Shown here in pieces: positions 21,383 to 38,231 of a DNA stretch of 42,499 bases. The notes below the pieces were generated by a model. It was not told the origin of the DNA. It searched no databases and worked only from the letters and a program-made list of their open reading frames with translations. The DNA is from a phage. The position numbers were made by a program, and so were the translations under genes. The stretch is taken from the sequence record OZ418230.1. One strand, written 5' to 3'. Numbering within the stretch: the stretch's first letter is position 1; the number at the start of each line of letters is the position of its first letter.

Positions 21383-21610
21383 ATGGATATAAGCCCCTTA
21401 CTTCATGCACTTTGTGCTGTGGCTGCGCAGATACTGGTTGGTCTTTTTACCGGAAACTGGGCTTACGGAGCGATAGCCGGTTGTACGTTCTTCATTGCGC
21501 GTGAACATACCCAGGCAGAATATCGCTGGATTGAAATGTTCGGGCATGGCAAGCGAATGAATATGCCGTGGTGGGGCGGTTTTGATGTTACGCCATATGG
21601 GCTGGACTGA
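21383..21610 (+). CDS. hypothetical small hydrophobic protein
   Basis: 75-aa ORF with hydrophobic N-terminus; its last codons run into the icd-homologous segment in a different frame, so could be fortuitous. Confidence 0.3.
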
Positions 21611-21749
21611 AGCCGCAGACCTGATTGTTAAAGGTATGGAAGGCGCAATCAACGCCAAGACTGTAACCTATGACTTCGAACGTCTGATGGAAGGCGCTAA
21701 ATTGCTGAAATGTAGCGAGTTTGGCGACGCGATCATCAAGAACATGTAA
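21585..21749 (+). other. attP-associated substitute 3' end of host icd (isocitrate dehydrogenase)
   Basis: Open frame translating [54 protein letters not shown], near-identical to the E. coli Icd C-terminus; phages 21 and e14 integrate in icd. Confidence 0.8.
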
Positions 21750-21772
21750 TCACTACATGTGTTAAATATTTA

Positions 21773-21800
21773 AACGGGCGTGTTATACGCCCGTTGTTTT
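21773..21800 (+). terminator. rho-independent terminator following the icd 3' segment
   Basis: Stem aacgggcg/cgcccgtt with 7-nt loop followed by gtttt. Confidence 0.65.
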
Positions 21801-21815
21801 ATGATGATGTAAAAT

Positions 21816-21852
21816 CTTCCCCAAAACTTTCCCCAAAACCCTTCCCCAAAAC
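21816..21852. repeat. three tandem 12-13 bp direct repeats (c/t)ttccccaaaac; candidate integrase arm-type sites
   Basis: cttccccaaaac / tttccccaaaac / ccttccccaaaac in direct succession between the icd segment and the int 3' end. Confidence 0.6.
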
Positions 21853-21862
21853 TGGCTATTTT

Positions 21863-23005
21863 CTATGCTGTTTTGATATCTACGATAACCCAGTCTTTAC
21901 CACGATCATCATTGTATCGGTCGGTCATTTTTCTGGATTTATGGCCTAACAACTTTTGCGTATCCAGACCCTGTTCCCGATATAACCGTTCTGACAGAGA
22001 TCGCTGCTCATGAAATGTGGGCGCAGTTCCTTGCTCCCATTTTATGCCACATTTTTCCCTGGCCTTTTTAAAAGCCGTTGTCAGAGTATTTGCAGAAACC
22101 TGGTCTCCTCTGTTTGCTTGAGAGGTAGTGTGACGGTAATGGACCAGATATTTACTAACAACAGCATCCCTGCACTGAGATATAACTTCACGAAGGGTAA
22201 TATTCAGAGCATCGCATTTCAGGTTAAGCGGAATAGCAAGTTTTGAACCGGTTTTTTCCTGAGTAATGTGCAACATGTCGTCCCAGATATCAGAGAATTT
22301 CAAATTGCAGATATCACCTAAACGTTGTCCAGTAACAAGAGCAAGTAGCATGCCGCATTTTAAATAGGGCTGCCGTCTGCTTACGCTTTCAAATATTGCC
22401 TGCCATTCGGGCAGTGACAATCTTTGGCGGTTTACTCGATTTCGCGGTTGTTTTGTTGCCTGCGCTGGGTTAAATCCTGGCGGAACATGTCCTGCGTGTT
22501 GTGCTTCTTTGAAGACGTCGATCAACACCATTCTCACGACTTGCGCCATCCTGTTATGACCTTCAGCCTTTACAGCATCAATTATTTCGGCAATATCAAG
22601 TGCGGTAATATCCTTGAGGTGTTGCATTCCACAATGCTCACGGAAAAGACGAATGGGTTTGCCTTTTTGCCGATAGGAGTTGGGTCTTAGTTCATTATGT
22701 TGCAGCCTGTCCTCCTGGATAGAAATATATTTATCAAGCCATTCTGTCACCGTAATTTCTGAGCGCCTGCCTTTCATTCTTTCCAGACGCTCATTGACGC
22801 TTAATATTTGTCGGGTACGTTGTTCAGCAATAATGGTATTTGCTTCAGTAGCAACTTGTTTTGCTTCATTCTCATCAGTTCCTAAGCTATGAAAACGACC
22901 GGATAGTGGATGTTTGTATTGCCAATATACCTTTCCGGTTCGCTTATCTAATTTGCAATATAAATTGGGTATAGAGATTTTGTGAGATCGGGGTCTAGCA
23001 GCCAT
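21863..23005 (-). CDS. int: tyrosine integrase, phage 21/e14 (icd-targeting) type
   Basis: 380 aa with tyrosine-recombinase C-terminal region (…HEQRSLSERLYREQGLDTQKLLGHKS…); resembles e14 IntE from memory; adjacent to attP. Confidence 0.9.
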   Translation of the reverse strand: MAARPRSHKISIPNLYCKLDKRTGKVYWQYKHPLSGRFHSLGTDENEAKQVATEANTIIAEQRTRQILSVNERLERMKGRRSEITVTEWLDKYISIQEDRLQHNELRPNSYRQKGKPIRLFREHCGMQHLKDITALDIAEIIDAVKAEGHNRMAQVVRMVLIDVFKEAQHAGHVPPGFNPAQATKQPRNRVNRQRLSLPEWQAIFESVSRRQPYLKCGMLLALVTGQRLGDICNLKFSDIWDDMLHITQEKTGSKLAIPLNLKCDALNITLREVISQCRDAVVSKYLVHYRHTTSQANRGDQVSANTLTTAFKKAREKCGIKWEQGTAPTFHEQRSLSERLYREQGLDTQKLLGHKSRKMTDRYNDDRGKDWVIVDIKTA

Positions 23006-23231
23006 CAGCGATTATCCGTTGGAGTTTTGGGTTTGCGTTTATTGGGAGTTGCGGTTCTGCAAGCGTTCCTACAAAACGGGAATTTCGGTCAATCATCCAG
23101 TAGCGACCAACTTTTATAGCGGGTGGGGCCATCATTTTCCCTTGCGCGTATTTTTTCAGAACTCGCTCACTTGGTGCTAAGTCCCCAAATTCTTCTTTAG
23201 CCCAGTCCTGTAAAGTGATTAGTCGAGACAT
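22995..23231 (-). CDS. xis: excisionase
   Basis: 78-aa ORF overlapping int start by 11 bp, position typical of xis. Confidence 0.75.
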   Translation of the reverse strand: MSRLITLQDWAKEEFGDLAPSERVLKKYAQGKMMAPPAIKVGRYWMIDRNSRFVGTLAEPQLPINANPKLQRIIADGC

Positions 23232-23370
23232 TTGTCCTCCTCTTAGCTGCTGAGGGAGTTTGTGACCGATATATCTGACATGATATTAAGCTCATGGCAG
23301 GTACATCTCTTGACTGGTCATAGAGATAAATTTAATGCTGAGAAATGCAGTATTGAATTTATCAATTTTT

Positions 23371-23610
23371 CTATTTCCTGCGTATGGCACGTAACTTCTT
23401 AATGTGTTCTGCCGTTTCGATCTCTTCTGCTATCCGATCTGCATCAGCTTTATTCACAGGTTCAAAGTCATGATTAAAGCGGAACATGCTGGCGATACAT
23501 GTTCTGCCTTTTCGGATGTAGTGAACTTTGTTGTAGGTAGAACGCAGGATTTTGCAGGGAGTGCCGTGGTGGTCGACGTACCAGGTGTTAGGAAAAATGA
23601 TTCTGAGCAT
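23371..23610 (-). CDS. hypothetical protein
   Basis: 79-aa ORF in the distal pL operon; no family recognised. Confidence 0.4.
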   Translation of the reverse strand: MLRIIFPNTWYVDHHGTPCKILRSTYNKVHYIRKGRTCIASMFRFNHDFEPVNKADADRIAEEIETAEHIKKLRAIRRK

Positions 23611-23657
23611 TTTTACACCTCAGTTGGACGATGTTGAAATTTGCTGCTTTGAGGCCA

Positions 23658-23876
23658 TCACAATCCCCATTGTTTGTTCTTAAGTTCGATCTCCTCCTGG
23701 CAACTTGCACAAGTCCGACAACCCTGAACGACCAGGCGTCTTCGCTCATCTATCGGATCGCCACACTCACAACAATGAGTGGCAGATACAGTCTGGTAGT
23801 TCAGACGACGCATTTTTATTGCTGTATTGCGCTGTAATTCTTCGATTTCTGATGCTGAATCAATGATGTCTGCCAT
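23658..23876 (-). CDS. TraR/DksA-family C4 zinc-finger protein
   Basis: 72 aa with CxxC…CxxC (CCECGDPIDERRRLVVQGCRTCASCQ) typical of the TraR/DksA zinc ribbon. Confidence 0.6.
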   Translation of the reverse strand: MADIIDSASEIEELQRNTAIKMRRLNYQTVSATHCCECGDPIDERRRLVVQGCRTCASCQEEIELKNKQWGL

Positions 23877-23974
23877 CTTCCATTAATCCCTGAATTGTTG
23901 GTTAATACGCTTGAGGGTGAATGCGAATAATAAAAAAGGAGCCTGTAGCTCCCTGATGATTTTGCTTTTCATGT

Positions 23975-24274
23975 TCATCGCTCCTTAAAGACGCCGTTTA
24001 ACATGCCGATCGCCAGGCTTAAATGAGTCGGTGTGAATCCCATCAGCGTTACCGTTTCGCGGTGCTTCTTCAGTACGCTACGGCAAATGTCATCGACGTT
24101 TTTATCCGGAAACTGCTGTCTGGCTTTTTTGATTTCAGAGTTAGCTTGACGGGCAATGCTGCGAAGGGCGTTTTTCTGCTGAGGTGTCACTGAACAAGCC
24201 CCATGCCGGAAAGCATAAGCACACAGAATATGAAGCCCGCCGCCAGAAAAATGCATTCTGTTGTTGTCATGCAA
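23975..24274 (-). CDS. hypothetical protein
   Basis: 99-aa ORF, start uncertain (internal Met possible). Confidence 0.45.
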   Translation of the reverse strand: MHDNNRMHFSGGGLHILCAYAFRHGACSVTPQQKNALRSIARQANSEIKKARQQFPDKNVDDICRSVLKKHRETVTLMGFTPTHLSLAIGMLNGVFKER

Positions 24275-24458
24275 GCTCTCTCTCGTTTGCCTCTGCTTTC
24301 GCCGCCATCATTTCCAGCTTTTGTGAAAGGGATGCGGCTAACGTATGAAATTCTTCGTCTGTTTCTGCTGGTATTGGCACAAACCTGACTCCAATTTGAG
24401 CAAGGCTATGTGCCATCTCAATGCTCGTTCTTAACTCAACAGGAGATGCTTTGTGCAT
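24267..24458 (-). CDS. lambda Orf63-like small protein
   Basis: 63 aa ([23 protein letters not shown]…), matches my recollection of lambda orf63 and its position upstream of orf60a/exo. Confidence 0.6.
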   Translation of the reverse strand: MHKASPVELRTSIEMAHSLAQIGVRFVPIPAETDEEFHTLAASLSQKLEMMAAKAEANERELA

Positions 24459-24619
24459 ACAGCCCCTCGTTTATTATTTATCTCCTCAGCCAGCCGCTGG
24501 GCTTTCAGTGGATTTTGGATAACAGAAAGGCCGGGAAATACCCAGCCTCGCTTTGTAACGGAGTAGACGAAAGTGATCGCGCCTACCCGGATATTATCGT
24601 GAGGATGCGTCATCGCCAT
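24431..24619 (-). CDS. lambda Orf60a-like small protein
   Basis: 62-aa ORF overlapping the 3' end of exo as lambda orf60a does. Confidence 0.55.
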
Positions 24620-25290
24620 TGCTCCCCAAATACAAAACCAATTTCAGCCAGTGCCTCGTCCATTTTTTCGATGAACTCCGGCACCATCTCGTCAAAACTC
24701 GCCATGTACTTTTCATCCCGCTCAACCACGACATAATGCAGTCCTTCACGCTTCATACGCGGGTCATAGTTGGCAAAGTACCAGGCATCTTTTCGTGTCA
24801 CCCACATGCTGTACTGCACCTGGGCCATGTAAGCCGACTTTATGGCCTCGAAACCACCGAGCCGGAACTTCATGAAATCCCGGGAGGTAAACGGGCATTT
24901 CAGCTCAAGGCCATTGCCGTCACTGCATAAACCATCGGGAGAGCAGGCGGTGCGCATACTTTCGTCGCGATAGATGATCGGGGATTCAGTAACATTCACG
25001 CCGGAAGTGAATTCAAACAGAGTTCTGGCGTCGTTCTCGTACTGTTTTCCCCAGGCCAGCGCCTTAGCATTAACTTCCGGAGCCACACCGGTGCAAACCT
25101 CAGCCAGCAGGGTGTGGAAGTAGGACATTTTCATGTCAGGCCACTTCTTTCCTGAGCGGGGCTTTGCTATCACGTTGTGAACTTGTGAAGCGGTGATGAC
25201 GCCGAGCCGTAATTTGTGCCACGCATCATCTCCCTGCTCGATAGCTCTCACGTCGATCCCGGTACGCTGCAGGATAATGTCCGGTGTCAT
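24610..25290 (-). CDS. exo: lambda exonuclease (Red-alpha)
   Basis: 226 aa, near-identical to lambda Exo. Confidence 0.95.
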
Positions 25291-26072
25291 GCTGCCACCT
25301 TCTGTTCAGTGGCTTTTTGTTTCAGGAATCCAAGAGCTTTCACTGCTTCGTCCTGTGTCAGTTCTGACGATGCACGAATGTCGCGGCGAAATATCTGGGA
25401 ACAGAGCGGCAATAAGTCGTCATCCCATGTTTTATCCAGGGCGATCAGCAGAGTGTTAATCTCCTGCATGGTTTCATCGTTAACCGGAGTGATGTCGCGT
25501 TCCGGCTGACGTTCTGCAGTGTATGCGGTATTTTCGACAATGCGCTCGGCTTCATCCTTGTCATAGATACCAGCAAATCCGAAGGCGAGACGGGCACACT
25601 GAATCATGGCTTTATGCCGTAACATCCGTTTGGGATGCGACTGCCACGGCCCCGTGATTTCTCTGCCTTCGCGAGTTTTGAATGGTTCGCGGCGGCATTC
25701 ATCCATCCATTCGGTAACGCAGATCGGATGATTACGGTCCTTGCGGTAAATCCGGCATGTACAGGATTCATTGTCCTGCTCAAAGTCCATGCCATCAAAC
25801 TGCTGGTTTTCATTGATGATGCGGGACCAGCCATCAACGCCCACCACCGGAACGATGCCGTTCTGCTTATCAGGGAAGGCGTAAATTTCTTTCGTCCACG
25901 GATTAAGGCCGTACTGGTTGGCGACGATCAACAATGCGATGAACTGCGCATCGCTGGCATCACCTTTAAATGCCGTCTGGCGAAGAGTGGTGATCAGTTC
26001 CTGTGGGTCGACAGAATCCATGCCGACACGTTCAGCCAGCTTCCCTGCCAGCGTTGCGAGTGCTGTACTCAT
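25287..26072 (-). CDS. bet: Red-beta single-strand annealing protein
   Basis: 261 aa, lambda Bet. Confidence 0.95.
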
Positions 26073-26077
26073 CCGTT

Positions 26078-26494
26078 TTATACCTCTGAATCAATATCAA
26101 CCTGGTGGTGAGCAATGGTTTCAACCATGTACCGGATGTGTTCTGCCATGCGCTCCTGAAACTCAACATCGTCATCAAACGCACGGGTAATGGCTTTTTT
26201 GCTGGCCCCGTGGCGTTGCAAATGATCGATGCATAGCGATTCAAACAGGTGCTGGGGCAGGCCTTTTTCCATGTCGTCTGCCAGTTCTGCCTCTTTCTCT
26301 TCACGGGCGATCTGCTGGTAGTGACGCGCCCAGCTCTGAGCCTCAAGACGATCCTGAATGTAATAAGCGTTCATGGCTGAACTCCTGAAATAGCTGTGAA
26401 AATATCGCCCGCGAAATGCCGGGCTGATTAGGAAAACAGGAAAGGGGGTTAGTGAATGCTTTTGCTTGATCTCAGTTTCAGTATTAATATCCAT
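26078..26494 (-). CDS. gam: Gam, RecBCD inhibitor
   Basis: 138 aa, lambda Gam (long form). Confidence 0.95.
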
Positions 26495-26592
26495 TTTTTA
26501 TAAGCGTCGACGGCCTCACGAAACATCTTTTCATCGCCAATAAAAGTGGCGATAGTGAATTTAGTCTGGATAGCCATAAGTGTTTGATCCAT
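26449..26592 (-). CDS. kil: Kil (host cell-division inhibitor)
   Basis: 47-aa product [47 protein letters not shown] as lambda Kil; the track ORF 26449..26718 is an upstream extension. Confidence 0.8.
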
Positions 26593-26725
26593 TTTTTGGG
26601 ACTCCTGGCTGATTAAGTATGTCGATAAGGCGTTTCCATCCGTCACGTAATTTACGGGTGATTCGTTCAAGTAAAGATTCGGAAGGGCAGCCAGCAACAG
26701 GCCACCCTGCAATGGCATATTGCAT
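26561..26725 (-). CDS. cIII: CIII (FtsH inhibitor stabilising CII)
   Basis: Manual translation gives the 54-aa [54 protein letters not shown], lambda CIII; below the track length cutoff. Confidence 0.8.
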   Translation of the reverse strand: MQYAIAGWPVAGCPSESLLERITRKLRDGWKRLIDILNQPGVPKNGSNTYGYPD

Positions 26726-26797
26726 GGTGTGCTCCTTATTTATACATAACGAAAAACGCCTCGAGTGAAGCGTTATTGGTATGCGGTAACGCCGCGC

Positions 26798-27166
26798 TCA
26801 GGCGGCTTTGATAGTCATATCATCTGAATCAAATATTCCTGATGTATCGATATCGGTAATTCTTATTCCTTCGCTACCATCCATTGGAGGCCATCCTTCC
26901 TGACCATTTCCATCATTCCAGTCGAACTCACACACAACACCATATGCATTTAAGTCGCTTGAAATTGCTATAAGCAGAGCATGTTGCGCCAGCATGATTA
27001 ATACAGCATTTAATACAGAGCCGTGTTTATTGAGTCGGTATTCAGAGTCTGACCAGAAATTATTAATCTGGTGAAGTTTTTCCTCTGTCATTACGTCATG
27101 GTCGATTTCAATTTCTATTGATGCTTTCCAGTCGTAATCAATGATGTATTTTTTGATGTTTGACAT
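26798..27166 (-). CDS. ea10: Ea10 protein
   Basis: 122 aa matching lambda Ea10. Confidence 0.9.
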   Translation of the reverse strand: MSNIKKYIIDYDWKASIEIEIDHDVMTEEKLHQINNFWSDSEYRLNKHGSVLNAVLIMLAQHALLIAISSDLNAYGVVCEFDWNDGNGQEGWPPMDGSEGIRITDIDTSGIFDSDDMTIKAA

Positions 27167-27426
27167 CTATTCATATCCTCACAGATAAAAAATCGCCCTC
27201 ACATTGGAGGGCAAAGAAGATTTCCAATAATCAGAACAAGTCGGCTCCTGTTTAGTTACGAGCGACATTGCTCAGTGTATTCACTCGTTGGAATGAATAC
27301 ACAGTGCAGTGTTTATTAGTATGCCTGTCTTTTAACCACATCAGGCTCGGTGGTTCTCGTGTACCCCTACAGCGAGAAATCGGATAAACTCTATTCACCC
27401 CTACAGAGAGCAAAAGAGAAACGCCG

Positions 27427-28008
27427 ATGAACAACTCATGGTGGCAGGAACTAATGCATTTTTTCCTGCAAGGAATGACACTTAAACAGTTGATTCATAT
27501 GCTAATCATCCTGATCATATTGATTATTGTTATGCCTGTAAGCGTAAAAGAATGGATAAACCTGCATAATCCAGAAATCCTTCCTCATTACTGGATGTAT
27601 TACATCCTGTTGTTTTGCGTTAGCTATGTGCTTAACGGCGTTGTTAATTCCGCTTATCACGCTGTGACTGTAAGAATTGAGATATTCGCTGCTCAGAAGC
27701 GCAAATCTAAAGAAGAGAAATACGTGCAAGATTTGTTTGATTCGTTAACTCTTGGAGAAAGAGCGTATTTGGCATTCGCTGTAGCCGCTAATAACCAGCT
27801 AAAGACAGAAAAGGGAAGCCCTGAAGCAATCTCATTGCTCGAAAAAGGGCTTCTTATTCGGGTACCTTCTGCTACTGGATATCCTGAAATCGACCGTTTT
27901 GTTATCCCGGAACGCTATAGAAATGAGTGCTACATTAGGTTTGCTGGGAAGAAAGACAGTCTTATGGATGAACTTATCGCTCAGGATAAGCATGGCAAAA
28001 ACAAGTAA
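27427..28008 (+). CDS. superinfection exclusion protein B-like membrane protein
   Basis: 193 aa, N-terminal TM helices, rightward within the leftward operon next to N; lambda sieB promoter-like sequence (cccctacagcgagaaatcggataaac) upstream; protein diverges from lambda SieB. Confidence 0.6.
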   Translation: MNNSWWQELMHFFLQGMTLKQLIHMLIILIILIIVMPVSVKEWINLHNPEILPHYWMYYILLFCVSYVLNGVVNSAYHAVTVRIEIFAAQKRKSKEEKYVQDLFDSLTLGERAYLAFAVAANNQLKTEKGSPEAISLLEKGLLIRVPSATGYPEIDRFVIPERYRNECYIRFAGKKDSLMDELIAQDKHGKNK

Positions 28009-28024
28009 TTAGCAAATGAATTTA

Positions 28025-28333
28025 TCATCTCGCCGTCAGTTGTTTTGATTTCCGGTAGCCTGCCGCGTAAATAGCTACGTTTGGCAGGCAAACACTTCCA
28101 CTGCATTCATCTACTTTCTTGCAGCGAAGGCTTCCGAGTGATATTGCTTTTTCAGAAAGGCTTAACCGCTTTCTCGGGTCTTCCTGAACAGGTTCCTCAC
28201 TGTCTGTGCCGAAGATCGAATCGATGATGTTGCAGATGGAATCACGCTCGATGGCCAGCTTTCTGCGCCGCTCATGACGGCGAGTTTTGGCATTTCCTGC
28301 AAATGTTGATTTTCCGTACACGATTACCGTCAT
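28025..28333 (-). CDS. N: N-like transcription antiterminator
   Basis: Arg-rich motif (AKTRRHERRRKLAIER) near the N-terminus if started at MTVIVYG (28333); first gene after nutL; alternative start 28417. Not lambda N. Confidence 0.6.
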   Translation of the reverse strand: MTVIVYGKSTFAGNAKTRRHERRRKLAIERDSICNIIDSIFGTDSEEPVQEDPRKRLSLSEKAISLGSLRCKKVDECSGSVCLPNVAIYAAGYRKSKQLTAR

Positions 28334-28450
28334 GATGTTTTCCTCATGTGAAATGGCTTTGGTGGTGATGCGCCAGATGCTGATCTTCTGGTTGCTGTCG
28401 TTACTGCTGCAATTCACATCACCCCAAACCCATCTCGTTTGGTATCTGTT

Positions 28451-28486
28451 CGCGCTTTGTCAGCGCATCATCGAAGTTAAAGAGCC
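28451..28486 (-). promoter_or_regulatory. nutL candidate (boxA-like ggctctttaa plus boxB hairpin gcgc-tgacaaa-gcgc on the minus strand)
   Basis: Same boxA/boxB arrangement and GACAA loop as the nutR candidate after cro. Confidence 0.5.
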
Positions 28487-28740
28487 TGCCAATCTGTTCC
28501 GTTTGGCTGCCAGCGTCCTGCTGATGGCGATTATAATGAACCAATAGTTCGATATTATCAAGAACTATAAGTACGAATTGTTTGTGGTTCATTAACTTAA
28601 TGAGATATGTTTTTGATATGTAAAGGAATTTATTTTTGTAAAGATTGAAGATTGGTCAGTAGGAGAGAAAGAATTGTTTGCTGGCGTGTTAGTTCGTGGG
28701 TTAGCACATGTGCGGATGTTAAATAAGGTAGACGATCGTG

Positions 28741-28770
28741 AGGAAAAGAAAAACCGGCGCTGAGGCCGGG
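28741..28770 (-). terminator. rho-independent terminator ending the cI-side (immunity) transcript
   Basis: On the minus strand, hairpin cccggc-ctcagc-gccggg followed by tttttcttttcc, 5 nt after the stop of the 28776..29675 gene. Confidence 0.6.
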
Positions 28771-28775
28771 TATAA

Positions 28776-29675
28776 TTATTTGATTATTTCTTTTATAAAG
28801 ACTTCTTTCGGTTGGTATTTTTTATCTGATGATTTGAGCTGGTACGTTATTGTTATATCAGCACGTACAGAAAATTTACCTGCAAAATCTGATGGGTTTA
28901 CGTTGGGGCCAAGAACCATATTTACTCTTCGATCTATTAATCCAGGGATAACAGCAGCCCAACCTTTCTCTGGATTGTCGAGGTCTAATGCACGGATTTC
29001 AACATCAACATCAAAATGATCCTGAGTATATGACTCTGGTGTGAAGACAACTTCAGTTGGGGCTTTTTTAATGGTTTCAGCGGGAATGGTCACTGTACCA
29101 CCCCCTGTACCTATGACCATCGTAGATCCTTCGTCTGCCCTAGCTGGGGCAAGCGTCTTAATGGAACTTTTGGCAAGAGTCTTCTTATTGGTTACCGTGC
29201 TTTCTATGATTGCTTGAAGACGGTCAGGTGAAATATTAGCCTCACCGGCACCAATATTGATGATTGTATTGTTATTTGCTTCAAAGTGGGAGGTGTTGCT
29301 TGGAGCCATAGCCTTAGTTGCTAGAACTAAGCCATATCCAACCAGACCAATAACAACAGCACCAACGAGAGCGTTTCTCATTTTCCCATTTCCGATCTTT
29401 GCATGAGCGCCAGCAAGAAACTTGTCCATTTCTTCTTGGCTACCAAAGAGGAGTTTAATAACAATATCTTCATAAAGGCTTCCTGCTTCTAATCGCGCAA
29501 CATGCACCGATATATCAAGGATATTAGCCCCTGTCAGTTCCTGCAAAACACCTTCTGATTGTTTTGCGATGGCCTCCCACCCTTGAAGGGAGGTAATCAC
29601 ATCTTTGATGCTTACAGGTTCTTTAGTTGAATAATATATGTTTTCGGTAAAGGTTAAAGATAATTCTTGGGACAT
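28776..29675 (-). CDS. uncharacterised membrane-anchored protein in the rexAB position
   Basis: 299-aa ORF downstream of cI on the same strand, gagg SD, one predicted TM helix (MRNALVGAVVIGLVGYGLVLATKA), low GC; no family recognised. Confidence 0.7.
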   Translation of the reverse strand: MSQELSLTFTENIYYSTKEPVSIKDVITSLQGWEAIAKQSEGVLQELTGANILDISVHVARLEAGSLYEDIVIKLLFGSQEEMDKFLAGAHAKIGNGKMRNALVGAVVIGLVGYGLVLATKAMAPSNTSHFEANNNTIINIGAGEANISPDRLQAIIESTVTNKKTLAKSSIKTLAPARADEGSTMVIGTGGGTVTIPAETIKKAPTEVVFTPESYTQDHFDVDVEIRALDLDNPEKGWAAVIPGLIDRRVNMVLGPNVNPSDFAGKFSVRADITITYQLKSSDKKYQPKEVFIKEIIK

Positions 29676-29804: not shown

Positions 29805-30512
29805 TCATGAACTTTTCAGCCATTCCCTGGCCTCGATGTCATCTAGGTGGCGAGATTGCTTCAGAATACCAGCTACATACTCCACCTTTGCTACTTGATG
29901 ATAAGGCAACGTTATTGGCCTGTGGTCTTGGTTGATGCTTGTAAATTGGTATTCTCCGTCTCTGTCATAGCCAAGAACCTTGATCATGTTGTGCCCTTCA
30001 ATGGTTCTGACAAACACCTCATCACCTGGGAATACTTTGGTGTTAGGCTCAATGAGTACATATTCTCCTGATTTTATTCTGGGCCACATGCTGTCTCCTT
30101 TTACACGAAGACCAAAGGCATCTGGATCATCGCTATAAATCTTGAGCCACCCATCGCGCTCTTCGGTCATCTCGATGGCACCATCAACACCAAGAATTGC
30201 CTCACCAACCACGCGCACTAACCCTTTTTTTAATTTGCCAACAATTGAAAAAGTATCTTCATCATTCGCTCCATTTAACGAAGTGCCGTGCTGAAGCCAA
30301 ACAACATCAACGTTTAGAAATTTCGCAAGCGCATTCATTTTTTCCTGGCGTGGTAAAGACTCAGCATTAAACCATTTGCTAACGCCTTTGGACGAAAGAG
30401 AAAGGGCACGGGCTATGGCCATTCCCCTACCATGTTCATCAAGACCAGCTTCTTTACAGGCTTGCGCTAGCCGCTGGGCGAATTCTTTGCGCACTTTTTC
30501 ATTCTGAACCAT
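29805..30512 (-). CDS. cI: CI-type prophage repressor (HTH + S24 LexA-like peptidase domain), non-lambda immunity
   Basis: 235 aa; N-terminal HTH and C-terminal GDSM serine motif; divergently oriented to cro; not lambda or 434 cI. Confidence 0.85.
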   Translation of the reverse strand: MVQNEKVRKEFAQRLAQACKEAGLDEHGRGMAIARALSLSSKGVSKWFNAESLPRQEKMNALAKFLNVDVVWLQHGTSLNGANDEDTFSIVGKLKKGLVRVVGEAILGVDGAIEMTEERDGWLKIYSDDPDAFGLRVKGDSMWPRIKSGEYVLIEPNTKVFPGDEVFVRTIEGHNMIKVLGYDRDGEYQFTSINQDHRPITLPYHQVAKVEYVAGILKQSRHLDDIEAREWLKSS

Positions 30513-33655: not shown

Positions 33656-34179
33656 CTATCAAATCAAATACGCCAGCACACGACAAGGACTGCTGGCAAA
33701 CGCCGCTTTGGCTTTTTGATGCACTGGATATTGAGTTTGGATTCTGGCTGGATTCGGCAGCGAGCGACAAAAATGCTCTGTGTGCTCACTGGCTAACTGA
33801 GGCCGACGACGCGCTCAATTCTGAGTGGGTAAGCCACGGTGCAATCTGGAATAACCCACCGTACAGCAATATCAGGCCGTGGGTGGAAAAAGCCGCTGAG
33901 CAGTGCATACAACAGCGACAGACGGTAGTTATGCTTGTGCCAGAGGATATGTCAGTCGGATGGTTCAGCAAGGCTCTGGAGAGTGTCGACGAAGTTCGCA
34001 TTATCACTGATGGACGGATTAATTTTATCGAACCATCGACAGGGCTGGAGAAGAAGGGAAACAGCAAAGGCTCCATGCTGCTGATTTGGCGACCGTTCAT
34101 CAGTCCTCGACGGATGTTTACTACCGTATCCAAAGCGGCATTGATGGCGATCGGGCAGGGCGTCAGGAGGGCGGCATGA
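33652..34179 (+). CDS. DNA N6-adenine methyltransferase (orphan, phage Dam-like)
   Basis: NPPY catalytic motif (AIWNNPPYS); ATGA overlap with ninB stop; occupies the ninC position. Confidence 0.75.
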
Positions 34180-34352
34180 GGCGACAGCGACGAAGTTTCA
34201 CCGACATCATCTGCGAAAACTGCAAATACCTTCCAACGAAACGCTCCAGAAATAAACGCAAGCCAATCCCAAAAGAATCTGACGTAAAAACCTTCAATTA
34301 CACAGCTCACCTGTGGGATATCCGGTGGCTAAGATATCGTGCGAGGAAATGA
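34176..34352 (+). CDS. ninE: NinE
   Basis: 58 aa [58 protein letters not shown], lambda/DLP12 NinE; ATGA overlap with the methyltransferase. Confidence 0.8.
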
Positions 34353-34696
34353 CAATGGATTATTCACAGTTAAGTGATTTTGAAATTAACAGAATGGTAG
34401 GAGACATAATTTTTAAAGGCCTTTGGGCAAGTAAACCGGAAACATCAGGGAATAACACCAACAAATGGTATTACGGAAATGCTGATACAACTTTTGAGCC
34501 ATTAAATCATTTGCCTGACTACTGCAATGATCCGAGCGCTTCATGGCCGATTATTGAGAAATACAGGATTTCTATCTTAGACCAGTTAACTGAATGGTGT
34601 GTGGATGCAAAAGGCGTAAGCCCAATATTTGATACCAGACCTCTCCGCGCCGCCATTATTGTCTTTCTCCTGATGCAGGAGGCCAATAATGCTTAG
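34349..34696 (+). CDS. hypothetical nin-region protein
   Basis: 115 aa from MTMDYSQ…; ATGA overlap with ninE; no confident family. Confidence 0.5.
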
Positions 34697-36900: not shown

Positions 36901-36911
36901 TGGATTTGCCC

Positions 36912-37817
36912 CTATATTTCCAGACACCTGTTATCACTTAACCCATCACTGGCCCACTGCCGCAGATATTCCCGTGGCGAGCGATAACCCAGCGCACTAT
37001 GCGGATGCCATTCGTTATAATGCTCGAACGCCTCTGCAAGGTTCTTTGCTGCCGTTAACCCGTCTGGTTTGGGCATGATACTGATGTAGTCACGCTTTAT
37101 CGTTTTCACGAAGCTCTCTGCTATTCCGTTACTCTCCGGACTCCGCACTGCCGTGTTCTTCGGTTCAAGTCCCAACATCCTGGCGAACTGACGTGTTTCA
37201 TTCGCCCGGTAGCATGAACCATTATCCGTCAGCCACTCCACTGGAGACGCCGGAAGCTCGCTGCCAAAGCGGCGTTCCACTGCTCCCAGCATGACGTCCT
37301 GTACTGTTTCACTGTCGAAGCCACCCGTTGTGACCGCCCAGTGCAGTGCCTCACGGTCACAGCAGTCCAGCGCGAACGTGACCCGCAGTTTTTCTCCGTT
37401 ATCACAGCGGAACTCAAACCCGTCAGAGCACCATCGCTGATTACTTTCTTTCACAGCCACTCTGCCGGTATGTGCCCGTTTCGATGGCGGTACAGCGGGT
37501 TTTCGCTCAAGCAACAGCGCATTCTGGCGCATGATCCGGTAAACACGTTTGGCATTGATCGCAGGCATACCATCAAGTTCTGTTTGTCTGCGAAGCAGCG
37601 CCCATACCCGACGATAACCATATGTGGGTAGCTCTCCGATAACATGGTGTATACGGCGAAGCACATCCGTATCATCCGTGTGACGGCTGCGGCGGCCGTC
37701 CTTCCAGTCATCGGCTCGTCTGAGAATGACGTGCAACTGCGCACGCGACACCCGGAGACAACGGCTGACGAAGCTTACTCCCCATCCCCGGGCAATAAGG
37801 GCGCGTGCGCTATCCAC
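36912..37817 (-). CDS. insD: IS2 transposase OrfB (InsD)
   Basis: 301 aa, matches IS2 InsD. Confidence 0.9.
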
Positions 37818-38140
37818 TTTTTTGCTCGCCCATATTCAACGGCTTCTTTAAGGAGTTCATTTTCCATCGTTTTTTTGCCGAGCAGACGCTGGAGTTCTTT
37901 AATCTGCTTCATGGCGGCAGCAAGTTCAGAGGCAGGAACGACCTGTTCTCCGGCAGCCACAGCAGTAAGACTTCCCTCCTGGTATTGCTTACGCCAGAGA
38001 AATAGCTGGCTGGCTGCCACACCATGTTGCCGGGCAACAAGGGAGACCGTCATTCCCGGTTCAAAGCTCTGCTGAACGATAGCGATCTTTTCCTGTGTAG
38101 TACGCCGTCTGCGTTTCTCCGGCCCTAAGACATCAATCAT
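37775..38140 (-). CDS. insC: IS2 OrfA (InsC)
   Basis: 121 aa from [40 protein letters not shown]…; overlaps insD (frameshift window). Confidence 0.9.
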
Positions 38141-38231
38141 CTGTTCTCCAATGACTAGTCTAAAAACTAGTATTAAGACTATCACTTAAATAAGTGATAT
38201 TGGTTGTCTGGAGATTCAGGGGGCCAGTCTA

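Follow-up and report, generated by a model that had tools for sequence, protein, structure and literature searches.

The interval between the early-left gene ea10 and the N-type antiterminator gene of the phage sequence OZ418230.1 raises the question of whether an uncommon event has taken place there. The initial annotation of this stretch (42,499 nt, termed the window hereafter, which covers essentially the whole phage genome) proposed that the anti-restriction gene ral had been lost and that the exclusion specificity had been replaced by that of a divergent SieB-like membrane protein. The analysis leads to a plainer answer: the ea10-to-N interval is an ordinary lambdoid segment in a common and already known mosaic configuration, since the same arrangement is present in many sequenced phages and in hundreds of Escherichia coli genomes. 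The reading preferred here, to which a probability of roughly 0.85 is assigned from sequence comparison and from analogy with phage P22, is that the locus lacks the ral/orf28 module, carries the P22 allele of sieB, and would act in a P22-like manner.

Around the locus, the leftward genes bet, gam, kil, cIII, and ea10 are followed by a gap of 260 bp, a rightward ORF of 193 aa, and a leftward N-type gene, which is convergent with the ORF and separated from it by 16 bp between the stop codons (Table 1). An alignment of positions 27100-27500 to phage ev207 and to lambda from ea10 to sieB revealed that window 27101-27317 corresponds to lambda 33839-34055, from which it differs by just three substitutions, and that the alignment picks up again at window 27318, equal to lambda 34392. 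The 336 bp of lambda 34056-34391, comprising ral (34087-34287) and orf28 (34271-34357), have no counterpart in the window. Past this junction, the similarity to lambda continues until about 27388, inside the sieB promoter, and the sequences diverge beyond that point. The match to lambda up to the place where ral would begin, followed directly by the promoter block, had been described correctly, and the promoter-like string quoted in that description, cccctacagcgagaaatcggataaac, was located at 27364-27389.

The absence of ral was corroborated by homology searches. Lambda Ral, P22 Ral, and orf28 were used as tblastn and phmmer queries against the whole 42.5-kb window and the six frames of 27100-27500, and for Ral and orf28 homologues only chance-level matches were returned; the best of them (E 0.23) lay outside the gap, where phmmer scores were approximately zero or negative. 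The 336-bp lambda segment likewise gave no blastn match to the window. The window and the complete genome of phage 1H12 (46.7 kb) are collinear except for one deletion and one insertion sequence, so ral is missing from the entire phage.

Table 1. Features of the ea10-to-N interval and its borders, in window coordinates.
Feature	Position	Strand	Basis or remark
ea10 (DUF2528), final early-left gene ahead of the gap	26798..27166	-	PF10800, E 1.8e-47; aligns to lambda ea10
Left intergenic block	27167..27317		Equals lambda 33905-34055; stops 31 bp before the 3' end of lambda ral; alignment with lambda and ev207
Terminator-like hairpin and T run, leftward-upstream of ea10	27193..27214	-	Consensus scan; putative
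ral-less junction	27317..27318		Lambda 34056-34391 missing here; alignment and 48-mer recurrence
Putative sas equivalent, complementary to the start codon, leader, and promoter of sieB	27322..27431	-	Assigned from sequence only
PsieB promoter, RNA start 27397	27360..27390	+	P22 29690-29720 and RNA start 29727, all columns identical; putative here
ACCCCTACAG direct repeat, two copies	27363-27372 and 27397-27406	+	Spaced 34 bp apart, on either side of the -10 region
sieB, P22 type, 193 aa	27427..28008	+	PF14163; orthology to P22 SieB
esc, in-frame internal product, 169 aa (SieB minus its first 24 residues)	27499..28008	+	Start at Met25; predicted
N-type antiterminator gene	28025..28333	-	PF25694, E 1e-40; 1H12 annotates a 309-nt CDS

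Within the left intergenic block, the putative hairpin is kept in lambda, ev207, HK446, 720R6, ev099, and VT1-Sakai, one loop base being different in lambda, ev207, and ev099. Its stem is identical in all lambdoid phages compared, also where other genes replace ea10, and the structure is probably the equivalent of one of the tL terminators known from lambda. Farther to the left, the Rfam family Lambda_thermo, the cIII thermoregulator, matched 26680-26738 on the minus strand with 88.5 bits, which was the sole match in the window above the gathering score.

The two departures from 1H12 lie elsewhere in the genome. At window junction 21586, between the tail-fibre region and int, 5.5 kb of 1H12 (21576-27124) is missing, a segment that contains the sitABCD manganese/iron transporter genes and four hypothetical genes. 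At 36901-38231, a 1,331-bp insertion is flanked by a 5-bp duplicated target and bears imperfect terminal inverted repeats (36909-36940 and 38191-38222) together with two leftward ORFs harboring HTH_Tnp_1 and rve domains; it is an IS3-family element of IS2 size, and it interrupts a ybgA-like (COG1683) cargo gene of 1H12.

To the right of the interval, the N gene itself is mosaic, as the similarity to VT1-Sakai ends at about 28153 and that to ev207 at about 28091, both inside the gene, and the N-terminal part is unlike either of them. Its ORF reaches a GTG at 28417, while the start annotated in 1H12 is the ATG at 28333. Between the N/pL region and a cI-like repressor gene (29805-30512), in the position of lambda rexA/rexB, a 299-aa ORF (28776-29675, minus strand) was found, which is followed on the same strand by a hairpin and T run at about 28745-28775. 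This ORF matched phrog_4506, a family of unknown function, gave no PADLOC, NCBIfam, or significant Pfam match, and is a candidate for a prophage-expressed cargo or defence gene.

The 193-aa ORF was suspected to be a low-GC, SieB-family membrane protein unlike lambda SieB, and each of these points was borne out. Pfam SieB (PF14163) matched residues 24-164 with 88.9 bits (E 3.2e-25), a score above the cut-off of 26 that places the ORF in this family and not in another one. The GC content of the ORF is 40.0%, compared with 50.6% for the window, and residues at about 19-38 are strongly hydrophobic, with a second, weaker hydrophobic helix at about 55-76. The identity to lambda SieB (lambdap48) is 24% over 128 residues (34 bits), short of a close full-length similarity, and phrog_6399, the lambda SieB family, matched the ORF at E 1.6e-5 only.

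The description of the protein as divergent, however, did not survive comparison with P22 SieB, the prototype of the family. The two proteins share 84% identity and 92% positives in a gapless alignment of 191 aa, in which 30 of the 191 residues differ, mainly at 77-100 and 141-191. Moreover, phrog_1301 matched the whole protein (residues 1-193, E 2e-123), and the best structural match of the predicted model among the viral models of BFVD was P22 Q38660; PADLOC and NCBIfam contained no model matching SieB or its neighbours. In the Stx1 phage VT1-Sakai, whose locus is 99% identical, the gene is annotated as sieB and 'similar to bacteriophage P22 SieB'. By these alignments, the ORF is an orthologue of P22 SieB rather than a new divergent exclusion protein.

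Whether ral was lost from this lineage or never gained by it was addressed at the junction, which reads TTTATT|AGTATGCC. The corresponding lambda segment has ATTGTGCC at its right end and TTATTTATGCC near its left end, and the short similar words TATGCC and TGTGCC flank its two ends. The window has AGTATGCC where lambda has ATTGTGCC, so that simply cutting the segment out of lambda would not give this junction. When 2.9 million viral contigs were scanned for exact copies of possible intermediate junctions, only unrelated chance matches came up: the pattern TTATTAGTATGCCAAAAA occurred in seven viral contigs, all of them unrelated and without the intergenic block or Ral, and the pattern GTAGTAAAGAGTATGCCTGTC gave zero matches. 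The absence of ral is accordingly retained from the earlier claim of its loss, and loss is one of two possible directions of change, the other being that ral was never gained.

The recurrence of the junction was evaluated with a 48-mer spanning 27295-27342, of which exact matches were counted. Eighteen phage records contained it, as did 338 of the 5,426 complete E. coli genomes, and the junction is therefore not a chance feature; its carriers differ in the genes on both sides. These counts also bear on the idea that the junction is peculiar to this sequence, having arisen by a recent deletion or through an error of assembly or cloning. The words TATGCC and TGTGCC at the segment ends could support a microhomology deletion, but the junction sequence differs from the expected product of a lambda deletion, and the exact 48-mer is shared by 18 independent phage records, VT1-Sakai, HK446, and phiSTEC801-Stx1a included, as well as by the 338 complete genomes, which renders this explanation scarcely credible.

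The distribution of the two features was then considered separately. Over approximately 1.8 kb around the locus, 11 phage records of the 1H12/Lambda_2E9 group match the window with 100% identity. The P22-type sieB, named super-infection exclusion protein B by PGAP, occurs in 587 of the 5,426 E. coli genomes (577 with at least 80% coverage), and lambda-type ral in 875 of them. Phage ev207 possesses the same sieB allele with ral present. HK446, 720R6, and ev099 possess the same ral-less junction block, behind which an unrelated ORF begins where sieB would be expected; HK446 (L006 1629-2123) and 720R6 (L008 1629-2123) annotate this ORF as a 164-aa CDS, described as HK620p16-like, and the record of ev099 (L007) annotates no gene at that place. 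The 164-aa protein of HK446 and 720R6 showed no Pfam match and no similarity to SieB. In addition, phage L has been reported with ral present and sieB absent (PMC8022706). Since ev207, the HK446, 720R6, and ev099 trio, and phage L combine the features differently, the absence of ral and the sieB allele assort independently, and they are two separate pieces of normal lambdoid mosaicism and not one event.

A divergent SieB-like protein with a new exclusion specificity, arisen in this phage together with a ral deletion, would agree with the identity of only 24% to lambda SieB and with the lack of ral and orf28 relative to lambda. Such an origin is nevertheless very improbable in the face of the 84% identity to P22 SieB, the 100% identical copies in other phages and E. 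coli genomes, the co-occurrence of the same allele with ral in ev207, and a junction common to phages with other neighbours. The absence of ral and the presence of a distinct allele thus stand, and their linkage as a single event of loss and replacement falls.

The control elements of the P22 locus were traced next to the orthologous gene. The P22 record places esc at 29830-30336, which corresponds to codon 25 of sieB, and the window has a methionine at this position too, as do at least 90% of 20 homologues drawn from several genera of enterobacteria; a Shine-Dalgarno sequence ahead of Met25 is absent. A leftward P22 RNA of 127 nt, P22A-sas, has been equated with sas (PMC13397905). Its coordinates in P22 are 29762-29636, and its counterpart in the window, 27431-27322, is 96.4% identical over 111 nt; the final 16 nt of the P22 sequence fall in the segment that is missing from the window.

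Directly ahead of the 5' end of the sas equivalent, the sequence shows no promoter of the sigma-70 consensus type. A promoter scan of 27100-28500 detected two promoter-like sites against 2.6 expected by chance and was for this reason not counted as evidence; the sole antisense promoter-like site within the sieB ORF (27542-27514) is no more than shuffled sequence yields. No promoter was assigned to the antisense RNA, and the sas-equivalent RNA may be processed from the pL transcript. No Rfam family covers the sieB region, and the fold of the antisense strand at 27380-27510 is unremarkable (z-score -1.18).

The second copy of the ACCCCTACAG repeat begins at the RNA start (27397), which was mapped in P22, and both copies are retained in the lambda-type, P22-type, and HK446-type alleles despite the differing sequence between and after them. 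This pair around the RNA start is worth carrying forward for the SieB family in general.

Another account of the gap is that it encodes a small leftward protein in place of ral, namely a 60-aa ORF (27252-27434) with a TTG start, residues 24-60 of which match phrog_31828, a family of unknown function, at E 4e-12. The ORF has no Pfam or NCBIfam match and does not resemble Ral; its frame crosses the sieB start codon, the PsieB promoter, and the junction, and its right half is non-coding promoter and antisense-RNA sequence that is also present in ral-carrying phages. Because the DNA of the gap is nearly invariant, repeated automatic ORF calls would yield a phrog-type family without a real gene, and no gene is annotated there in the phage records compared, among them 1H12, VT1-Sakai, HK446, ev099, and 720R6. 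A protein-coding role of the gap in place of ral is consequently held to be most unlikely.

The primary P22 work on SieB, Esc, and sas is that of Ranade and Poteete (1993), and the background on Esc and sas used here derives from the P22 GenBank annotation and from later papers citing that work. SieB halts macromolecular synthesis midway in the lytic cycle of superinfecting P22-like phages, whereas P22 itself is spared (PMC10461980). Two peptides are made from sieB, the antisense RNA sas switches translation from one to the other, and Esc enables the phage to bypass exclusion (PMC12197685, PMC7067206).

By analogy, the locus would operate in the following way. In the lysogen, sieB would be transcribed rightward from PsieB, opposite to the repressed pL operon, and the full-length SieB of 193 aa would serve as a membrane-anchored abortive-infection factor that halts synthesis midway in the lytic cycle of a sensitive superinfecting phage. 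Esc, which starts at Met25 and is devoid of the first 24 residues, would inhibit SieB. During lytic growth, the leftward antisense RNA (27431-27322) is expected to block the translation of SieB and not that of Esc; with SieB blocked and Esc made, the phage would be spared the effect of its own system. All sequence elements of the P22 SieB/Esc/sas system that could be located are present in the window, which argues for a prophage-expressed abortive-infection cassette with built-in self-protection. That the cassette is expressed and that its SieB/Esc/antisense switch operates in E. coli is inferred, as are the range of phages excluded and the behavior under restriction.

The cassette could also be an inert passenger that is intact, but unexpressed or inactive in E. 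coli, a view with which the weak -35 region and the weak ribosome-binding sites would be in keeping. It is regarded as unlikely, because the reading frame is uninterrupted and strongly conserved in Escherichia, Salmonella, Citrobacter, and further genera, its promoter has the same sequence as the one mapped in P22, and the P22-type gene is carried by the E. coli genomes counted above, nearly all at the coverage given there. A functional cassette of the P22 kind is hence favored. From the old literature on P22 and lambda, it is plausible that P22-type and lambda-type SieB exclude different phages, and the protection that a prophage of this type gives its host should come from SieB of the P22 kind and not of the lambda kind.

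To our knowledge, the mechanism of SieB has not been established since the 1970s. An AlphaFold2 model, constructed on 20 homologues, predicted a poorly defined N-terminal helix, a hydrophobic helix at residues 19-35, a short helix at 38-47, a very long helix at 54-105, and a confident, winged-helix-like C-terminal domain at residues about 105-175. Compared with solved winged-helix proteins, the predicted C-terminal domain displayed the winged-helix (MarR-like) fold, which is a very common fold. With the full-length model, Foldseek found only weak matches in the PDB, none at E <=0.001, and the SieB profile gave only chance-level matches to PDB sequences. According to the model, Esc would retain the winged-helix-like domain and most of the first hydrophobic helix, and would lack residues 1-24.

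A further mechanistic step is tentatively added on the basis of this model. The cytoplasmic winged-helix-like domain (about 105-175) might detect the superinfecting phage through one of its products or its nucleic acid, while the N-terminal 24 residues that are missing in Esc, together with the membrane helices, might perform the shut-down, possibly through the membrane. Esc would then compete with SieB as an inactive partner, the N-terminal part being needed for the lethal output. This division into a winged-helix sensor and an effector composed of the N-terminal segment and the membrane helices is possible rather than probable.

The slot behind the conserved promoter block has at least three occupants, namely lambda-type SieB, P22-type SieB, and the unrelated 164-aa protein of HK446 type, and it appears to be a small exchange hotspot for prophage defence cargo. 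Taken one step further, SieB could be a membrane-tethered sensor-effector, and the block of about 110 bp at 27318-27431, containing PsieB and the antisense RNA, could be a portable two-way control cassette placed before a variable defence-cargo slot, a generalization that is put forward as a speculation with less than even prospects. The predicted winged-helix domain offers a concrete handle on how SieB senses infection, and this prediction and the invariant promoter/antisense block before a variable cargo slot are the points to carry forward for the SieB family.

With regard to ral, the lambda Ral protein speeds up first-strand methylation by type IA enzymes, which results in higher phage survival (PMC12707154), and the gene gains importance only where the type I system of the host is active (PMC10695390). 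Having no ral anywhere in its genome, the phage should miss the Ral-mediated acceleration of methylation by type IA (EcoKI-family) enzymes, and its unmodified particles should be restricted more strongly than those of lambda on hosts with such enzymes. For this phage, the significance is small, as both features are common variants.

Lambda (NC_001416 33536-35438) has the same gene order and orientations, and its ea10, hairpin block, and promoter block up to GGATAAACT are nearly identical to those of the window; it differs in carrying the 336-bp ral/orf28 segment, in a SieB that is only 24% identical, and in the end of similarity at about 27388 in the promoter. HK446, vB_EcoP-720R6, and ev099 share an identical ral-less intergenic block, including the junction, but they have a different ORF in the slot after the promoter block, and HK446 and 720R6 have different genes to the left of the block in place of ea10. 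VT1-Sakai (AP000400 47017-48516) contains the same ssb(ea10)-sieB-N segment with the 260-bp ral-less gap and the identical junction, at 99% DNA identity over 1,454 bp, whereas the similarity stops inside the N gene at about window 28153 and the immunity region is another one. Finally, the sieB/esc/sas region of P22 (NC_002371 29690-30336) resembles the window in the 84% protein identity, the same promoter and RNA start, the Esc start at Met25, and an antisense region that is 96% identical, and its sieB is likewise located next to an N-type gene (gene 24) in the same orientation. P22 differs in that ral (29349-29543) is situated directly to the left of the promoter block, where the window is without ral, and in its host, which is Salmonella for P22 and E. 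coli for the present phage.
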